Shown here: in pieces, positions 58,233-58,255 of the stretch
Layout: every line of letters starts with the position of its first letter
Position numbering within the stretch: the first letter of the stretch is position 1
Source: Escherichia coli
Lineage (GTDB): Bacteria > Pseudomonadota > Gammaproteobacteria > Enterobacterales > Enterobacteriaceae
NCBI RefSeq assembly: GCF_016903815.1
Contig: NZ_CP069973.1
Strand: one strand, 5' to 3'
DNA length: 64,000 bases
Made by a program: the position numbers and the translations under genes
Notes under the pieces: generated by a model
The model's database searches: none
Told to the model about the DNA's origin: nothing
The model's input: only the letters and a program-made list of their open reading frames with translations

Positions 58233-58255
58233 ATAAAGTATGTTGTAACTAAAGT
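58233..58255 (+). other. Replication terminus Ter site (TerB-like Tus-binding site)
   Basis: ATAAAGTATGTTGTAACTAAAGT contains the conserved Ter core GTATGTTGTAACTAAAG, about 10 bp upstream of the tus start. Confidence 0.85.

Follow-up and report, generated by a model that had tools for sequence, protein, structure and literature searches.

A natural one-base variant of the TerB site upstream of tus in Escherichia coli

The spacer between rstB and tus in an Escherichia coli DNA stretch of 64,000 nucleotides (the window) contains a 23-bp element similar to the replication-fork barrier TerB. An earlier note on this DNA described it as a TerB-like Tus-binding site with a conserved core and a 5' flank unlike that of K-12. 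The locus raises the questions of whether the element is TerB, whether the difference in the flank is real and whether it would change fork arrest or the control of tus. The analysis indicates that positions 58233-58255 are almost certainly TerB, a well-known site that in E. coli acts as a barrier to replication forks and as the operator of tus. The earlier description is right, but its subject is ordinary, an already known textbook element in a natural strain variant. In itself it matters very little, as it places the window at the terminus of ST405 / phylogroup D E. coli. The features of the region are collected in Table 1.

Table 1. Positions of the Ter site, the putative promoter elements and the flanking genes in the window.
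Feature	Position	Strand	Remarks
TerB ortholog, 23-bp Ter site	58233-58255	+	Reads ATAAAGTATGTTGTAACTAAAGT; non-permissive face at the 5' end (58233), permissive face at the 58255 end
G6 (58238) and invariant core positions 8-19, ATGTTGTAACTA (58240-58251)	58238-58251	+	Identical to K-12
AAA run with one extra A relative to AA in K-12	58235-58237	+	Inserted base not assignable within the run
Putative extended -10 of the tus promoter, TGcTATAAA (hexamer 58227-58232)	58224-58232	+	Predicted from sequence and motif conservation
Putative -35-like hexamer TGGTCA, 17 nt upstream of the -10	58204-58209	+	Predicted; TGG moderately conserved at corresponding offsets across species
tus, 309-aa DNA replication terminus site-binding protein	58266-59195	+	Pfam PF05472, 457 bits
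rstB, upstream neighbour fixing orthology	56888-58189	+	Stop codon 43 nt before the Ter site

The 17-mer GTATGTTGTAACTAAAG was found at 58238-58254 with no mismatches, and it was the sole match in the window when both strands were searched with up to three mismatches allowed (0.15 matches expected). The only match to the looser Ter consensus GNRNGTTGTAACKA in the 64-kb window was the same site. As calculated here, about 7e-6 chance occurrences of the exact 17-mer are expected in 128 kb of sequence, and such a match is therefore not due to chance. The exact 17-mer, together with the tus ATG located 10 nt beyond the end of Ter, bore out the earlier description of the site and its position. The G of the G-C(6) pair corresponds to 58238, and no departure from the Ter consensus was found at G6 or positions 8-19, the part of the site on which the earlier note had made its reading depend.

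The gene order in the window (folM, ydgC, rstA, rstB, Ter, tus, fumC, fumA/B, manA), established from the list of open reading frames and the annotation of K-12 and strain 7/2, was as in K-12. The K-12 TerB (NC_000913.3 1,684,226-1,684,248, + strand) likewise occupies the rstB-tus spacer, ends 10 nt ahead of the ATG and is on the same strand relative to tus. The shared flanking genes and the location directly before an intact tus identify the window site as the positional ortholog of K-12 TerB. The site shows all the features that define the Ter family at the level of sequence, and no observation spoke against its identification. The start of tus is the ATG at 58266, which is annotated and conserved in K-12, strain 7/2 and the loci of other species. 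A listed open reading frame, 58107-59195 (362 aa), begins at a GTG inside rstB and runs through Ter, representing an upstream in-frame extension only.

The Tus protein encoded in the window was identical to K-12 Tus at 303 of 309 residues (98%), with six changes at residues 22, 23, 27, 119, 221 and 225, which leaves residues 28-118 and 120-220 unchanged. It also matched the solved Tus-Ter structures PDB 1ECR, 2EWJ and 2I06. Residues E49, I79, F140, H144, G149 and R198, read off the alignment, were all unchanged relative to K-12; Mulcair et al. 2006 are said to have found these residues surrounding the cytosine pocket and its approach.

The alignment with MG1655 showed that K-12 reads AATAAGT where the window has ATAAAGT. 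The earlier note had given AATAA for K-12 TerB, which is correct, so that a wrong K-12 sequence, one of its two explanations of the difference, fell away. The flanks of the two sequences aligned only with a 1-bp gap (K-12 AAAAT-AAGT versus AAAATAAAGT in the window or, over a longer stretch, AAAAT-AAGTATG versus AAAATAAAGTATG), and the rstB-tus spacer was 76 nt long in the window and 75 nt long in K-12. For these reasons, two substitutions in place of an insertion were rejected. In the ungapped 23-mer frame, the window differs from K-12 TerB at positions 2 and 3 (TA versus AT), whereas position 1, A4, A5, G6 and positions 7-23 are the same. The claim of a difference at one or two outer positions was thus accurate, a single A inserted before G6 altering two positions of the 23-mer. 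Compared with K-12, the insertion also leaves the TGnTATAAA element 1 bp farther from the core.

The K-12 sites TerA, TerD and TerE (- strand) and TerC, TerB and TerG (+ strand) were re-derived from NC_000913.3. An alignment with K-12 Ter sites had been proposed earlier as a check; among these six, TerB was the nearest to the window site (2/23 differences), followed by TerA (3/23). Positions 2-20 of the window site were identical to K-12 TerE. However, TerE (1,082,205-1,082,227, - strand) and TerA (1,341,745-1,341,767, - strand) occupy other loci and block anticlockwise forks, and neither lies beside tus.

The search of species-representative genomes with the window Tus yielded 80 loci in Enterobacteriaceae (Escherichia, Citrobacter, Salmonella, Enterobacter, Klebsiella, Kosakonia and others). 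As a by-product, a clean cross-species picture of the tus-vicinal Ter site was obtained. A Ter site was present upstream of the tus start in all 80 species at a distance of 6-27 nt, mostly 6-10 nt, and A5, G6 and positions 8-19 were invariant in 80 of 80 sites. Position 7 was T in 74 of them, and positions 1-4 and 21-23 varied freely. The A at position 5 was as invariant as G6 and the core, though positions 1-5 are usually grouped as variable.

The pentamer ATAAA at positions 1-5 was also found in E. albertii, an Escherichia sp., a Citrobacter and an Enterobacter. When aligned with their flanks, E. albertii and five other outgroup sequences (Escherichia, Salmonella, Citrobacter) kept the K-12 distance from TGnTATA to G6, and the insertion in the window is therefore derived. 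ATAAA as the ancestral state, considered due to the same 23-mer in E. albertii, was rejected, since in that species it arose by substitution with the K-12 spacing retained.

The frequency of the allele was estimated with a 60-bp query centred on the window site, which had a 100% match in at least 261 complete E. coli genomes; the corresponding K-12 59-mer had a 100% match in at least 2329. Both counts are lower bounds, about 600 genomes giving no match at E <= 1e-5 with such short BLAST queries. The strain polymorphism, offered earlier as the other explanation of the altered flank, is thus real. Over 24 kb the window was 100% identical to many genomes, with 95 genomes at 99% identity or more, and strains WCHEC96200 and WCHEC4533, published as ST405 phylogroup D, were among the matching ones. 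This identity assigns the window to the clone ST405 / phylogroup D. The allele was also carried by strain 135 (chicken), with a different upstream flank and four differences in Tus, and is therefore not confined to one clone.

Other E. coli alleles also vary at positions 2-3 of TerB, and the compared genomes point to several natural alleles of TerB and the tus promoter in the species. Goodall et al. listed Ter positions 1-5, 7 and 19-23 as variable (PMC8347550), and for terB the variation among phylogroups is put at '1-2 SNPs/23 bp' in a review (PMC10331603). The allele of the window falls within variation already documented in kind, the polymorphism being located in the part of Ter already published as variable. 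TerB alleles with G instead of T at position 7 (AATAAGGATG... or ATTAAGGATG...) were noticed in O157:H7 N8B7-2, UPEC132 and D10. One of the strains O157:H7 N8B7-2, UPEC132, PRO_A-1551 and D10 has TACAAA in place of TATAAA in the -10-like element.

The data allowed two trivial explanations of the site to be judged. The extra A might be a homopolymer error of sequencing or assembly, with the true sequence being that of K-12 TerB, as a gain of one base in a short A run is a typical error of some long-read platforms; no result of the analysis spoke for this reading. However, the identical 60-mer in the 261 complete genomes originates from many laboratories and platforms, the allele follows a clone (about 95 near-identical genomes over 24 kb) and it recurs on the second, divergent background of strain 135. 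An error is thus extremely improbable and, as the cause of the extra A, effectively refuted. Even smaller, and practically negligible, is the probability that the Ter match is a chance or vestigial pseudo-Ter playing no role. Against it stand the exact 17-mer core, the same placement relative to tus in 80 of 80 species and the intact cognate Tus, and this conservation was counted as refuting.

The GC skew of the + strand was negative across the whole window, which indicates that the region is normally replicated from right to left, through the permissive face of the site. Motif scans of the 64-kb window revealed no further Ter sites and no dif, and the fork trap was therefore put together from the complete genome of the near-identical strain 7/2 (NZ_CP023820.1, 5,099,240 bp), whose sequence runs colinear with that of the window and differs from it by 2 mismatches in 49 kb and one IS1. 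The record of 7/2 starts at thrL, and oriC is located between mnmG and mioC at about 4,259,500. Travelling clockwise from oriC, a fork would come to TerB (+ strand, 1,880,544) after 53% of the chromosome, having gone 171 kb beyond the geometric midpoint.

These positions and the GC skew confirmed the location of the window at the replication terminus, as the earlier note had supposed, and settled the orientation relative to oriC that it had left to be checked. By these indications, the window TerB, which shares its strand class with TerC, TerB and TerG of K-12, is oriented as a barrier to clockwise forks, as in K-12. The prediction of a fork trap was supported, with a refinement: the + orientation fits a clockwise barrier, but the role of TerB within the trap is not fixed, since TerC and dif are inverted in about one third of the complete genomes of the clone.

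The mode of action expected at the site follows work on K-12. A Tus monomer, encoded directly downstream, would bind the 23-bp TerB. A clockwise fork, moving from left to right in the window, would meet the AT-rich 5' end first and unwind positions 1-5 and then G-C(6), upon which C6 of the bottom strand would flip into the pocket of Tus, lock the complex and arrest the fork. A fork moving from right to left would displace Tus and pass. In the published description of this process, the replisome copies T3-A5 and is locked once G-C(6), the critical pair, has been unwound (PMC4499146). The bound Tus would also block RNA polymerase at the putative overlapping promoter and thus repress tus and set its own level; such repression is expected from the placement of TerB, downstream of the -10-like element and ahead of the tus ATG. 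Binding, lock, fork arrest and repression are all predicted here by analogy with K-12.

The hexamer TGGTCA and the element TGcTATAAA likely form the tus promoter, with transcription starting at about 58239, inside Ter. The extended -10-like element ends 5 nt before G6. Relative to G6, a TGnTA motif occupied the offset -13 in about half of the 80 species, and the window has it at -14. The offset of the motif nearest to G6 spanned -12 to -18, and no match to the motif was found in some species. A simple sigma-70 scan of 58100-58350 gave no promoter, as it accepts a -10 hexamer only with T in the sixth place, whereas the candidate, TATAAA, ends in A. The promoter assignment was therefore drawn from motif conservation. 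In K-12, Tus autoregulates through TerB in the tus promoter (PMC8707476), and this literature, taken together with the sequence geometry, suggests that tus is autoregulated at the window site as well, as the earlier note had predicted.

The inserted A was rated neutral or nearly neutral and regarded as an allele of ST405 / phylogroup D and some other lineages, because the contacted bases are untouched and the outer bases are unresolved in structures and minor. The structures neither resolve positions 1-5, 7 and 19-23 nor show contacts to them, and the contribution of the outer bases is described as small (PMC8347550). It could be argued that the altered positions 2-3 weaken or strengthen fork arrest or lock formation, given that slowing of the replisome has been reported to begin at A4, before G-C(6), and that the stability of flanking base pairs could in principle matter (PMC4499146). 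The approach sequence may for this reason not be wholly irrelevant. Such an effect at TerB is nevertheless very unlikely, as A4, A5, G6 and all contacted positions are unchanged, the AT content of positions 1-5 remains 5/5 and positions 1-4 vary freely among the 80 tus-vicinal Ter sites. Moreover, TerE, with which the window site shares positions 2-20, counts among the six high-affinity sites that ChIP-seq showed to be bound (PMC8707476).

One rival alone carries some weight, though it is still unlikely; it concerns autoregulation and is compatible with the main explanation of the site. Since the insertion puts one more base pair between the -10 element and the core contacted by Tus, it might alter the occlusion of RNA polymerase and reset the cellular level of Tus. 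The preference of TGnTATA for the -13 offset in about half of the 80 species, the K-12 spacing kept in the aligned Escherichia, Salmonella and Citrobacter outgroups and the reported location of TerB within the tus promoter (PMC8707476) speak for this, and the shift may have some effect on the overlap of promoter and operator. On the other hand, an offset ranging from -12 to -18 and the species with no motif suggest that the spacing is not strictly constrained. The window promoter is itself predicted from sequence, and in the successful clones through which the allele has spread, Tus shows no sign of compensating changes.

The comparison of 7/2 with K-12 to the left of the window revealed a rearranged terminus. 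In 7/2 a block that extends from ydfJ/pinQ to uspF and includes yneE, dif and ansP is reversed, so that TerC (ACATAGGATGTTGTAACTAATAT; 1,620,950-972, - strand) and dif (1,638,100-127, + strand) are both inverted relative to K-12. The inverted block is about 213 kb long (about 1,587-1,800 kb in 7/2; NZ_CP023820.1 1,579,448-1,807,720 was examined). It is flanked by two lambdoid prophages that carry, in inverted orientation, a common 7.57-kb tail-gene segment (98.6% identity). In 53 complete genomes of the clone, the TerC and tus regions were compared for strand and distance. The 7/2-like inverted state was found in 19 of them, with the two regions 249-273 kb apart, and the K-12-like state in the remaining 34, with a distance of 109-126 kb. 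Chromosomes of equal length but opposite inversion state were found in strains 222 and 103.

In the inverted state, as read from these arrangements, TerC is placed to block anticlockwise forks and TerB becomes the innermost clockwise barrier instead of a back-up. The resulting trap between TerC and TerB (260 kb) contains dif and the midpoint. In a type II trap as defined by Toft et al. 2021 (PMC8707476), the tus-vicinal Ter is not the innermost one, being separated from dif by another Ter of the same orientation; the inverted-state genomes agree with the definition of a type I fork trap given by the same authors. The same trap arrangement is known from Shigella flexneri and S. boydii (Goodall et al. 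2021, PMC8347550; PMC10331603). In contrast to Shigella, the arrangement is polymorphic within a clone here and arises through recombination of two prophages, which inverts TerC and dif as one unit.

The first position of the window already lies to the right of the repeat, within the right-hand prophage, and the inversion junctions are outside the window, which is compatible with either state. It is possible, though rather doubtful, that the source genome is in the inverted state, with TerB as the first clockwise barrier of a type I trap of about 260 kb, that the clone flips repeatedly between types II and I, and that the extra-A allele works in that context. An inversion-polymorphic, globally spread and multidrug-resistant clone offers a natural isogenic pair for studying whether the position of TerB, as back-up or as primary barrier, is of consequence in termination and dimer resolution.

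The part of the window from 1 to 26714 has a low GC content (0.42-0.46) and a strongly negative GC skew and represents the right-hand portion of a Qin-like lambdoid prophage, which is one partner of the TerC/dif inversion. Annotation transferred from 7/2 placed in this prophage cspI/cspB/cspF, lysis genes, relBE, hokD, dicB and copies of IS200 and IS66, a KwaB-like anti-phage gene at about 12.7-13.7 kb and the prophage integrase at about 25434-26714, adjoining rspB. At about 644-653 of the window, 7/2 has an IS1 (767 bp) absent from the window, and the overlap of about 10 bp is consistent with a target duplication. The lack of this IS1, with otherwise 2 mismatches in 49 kb, indicates that the window originates from a very close relative of 7/2 and not from 7/2 itself.
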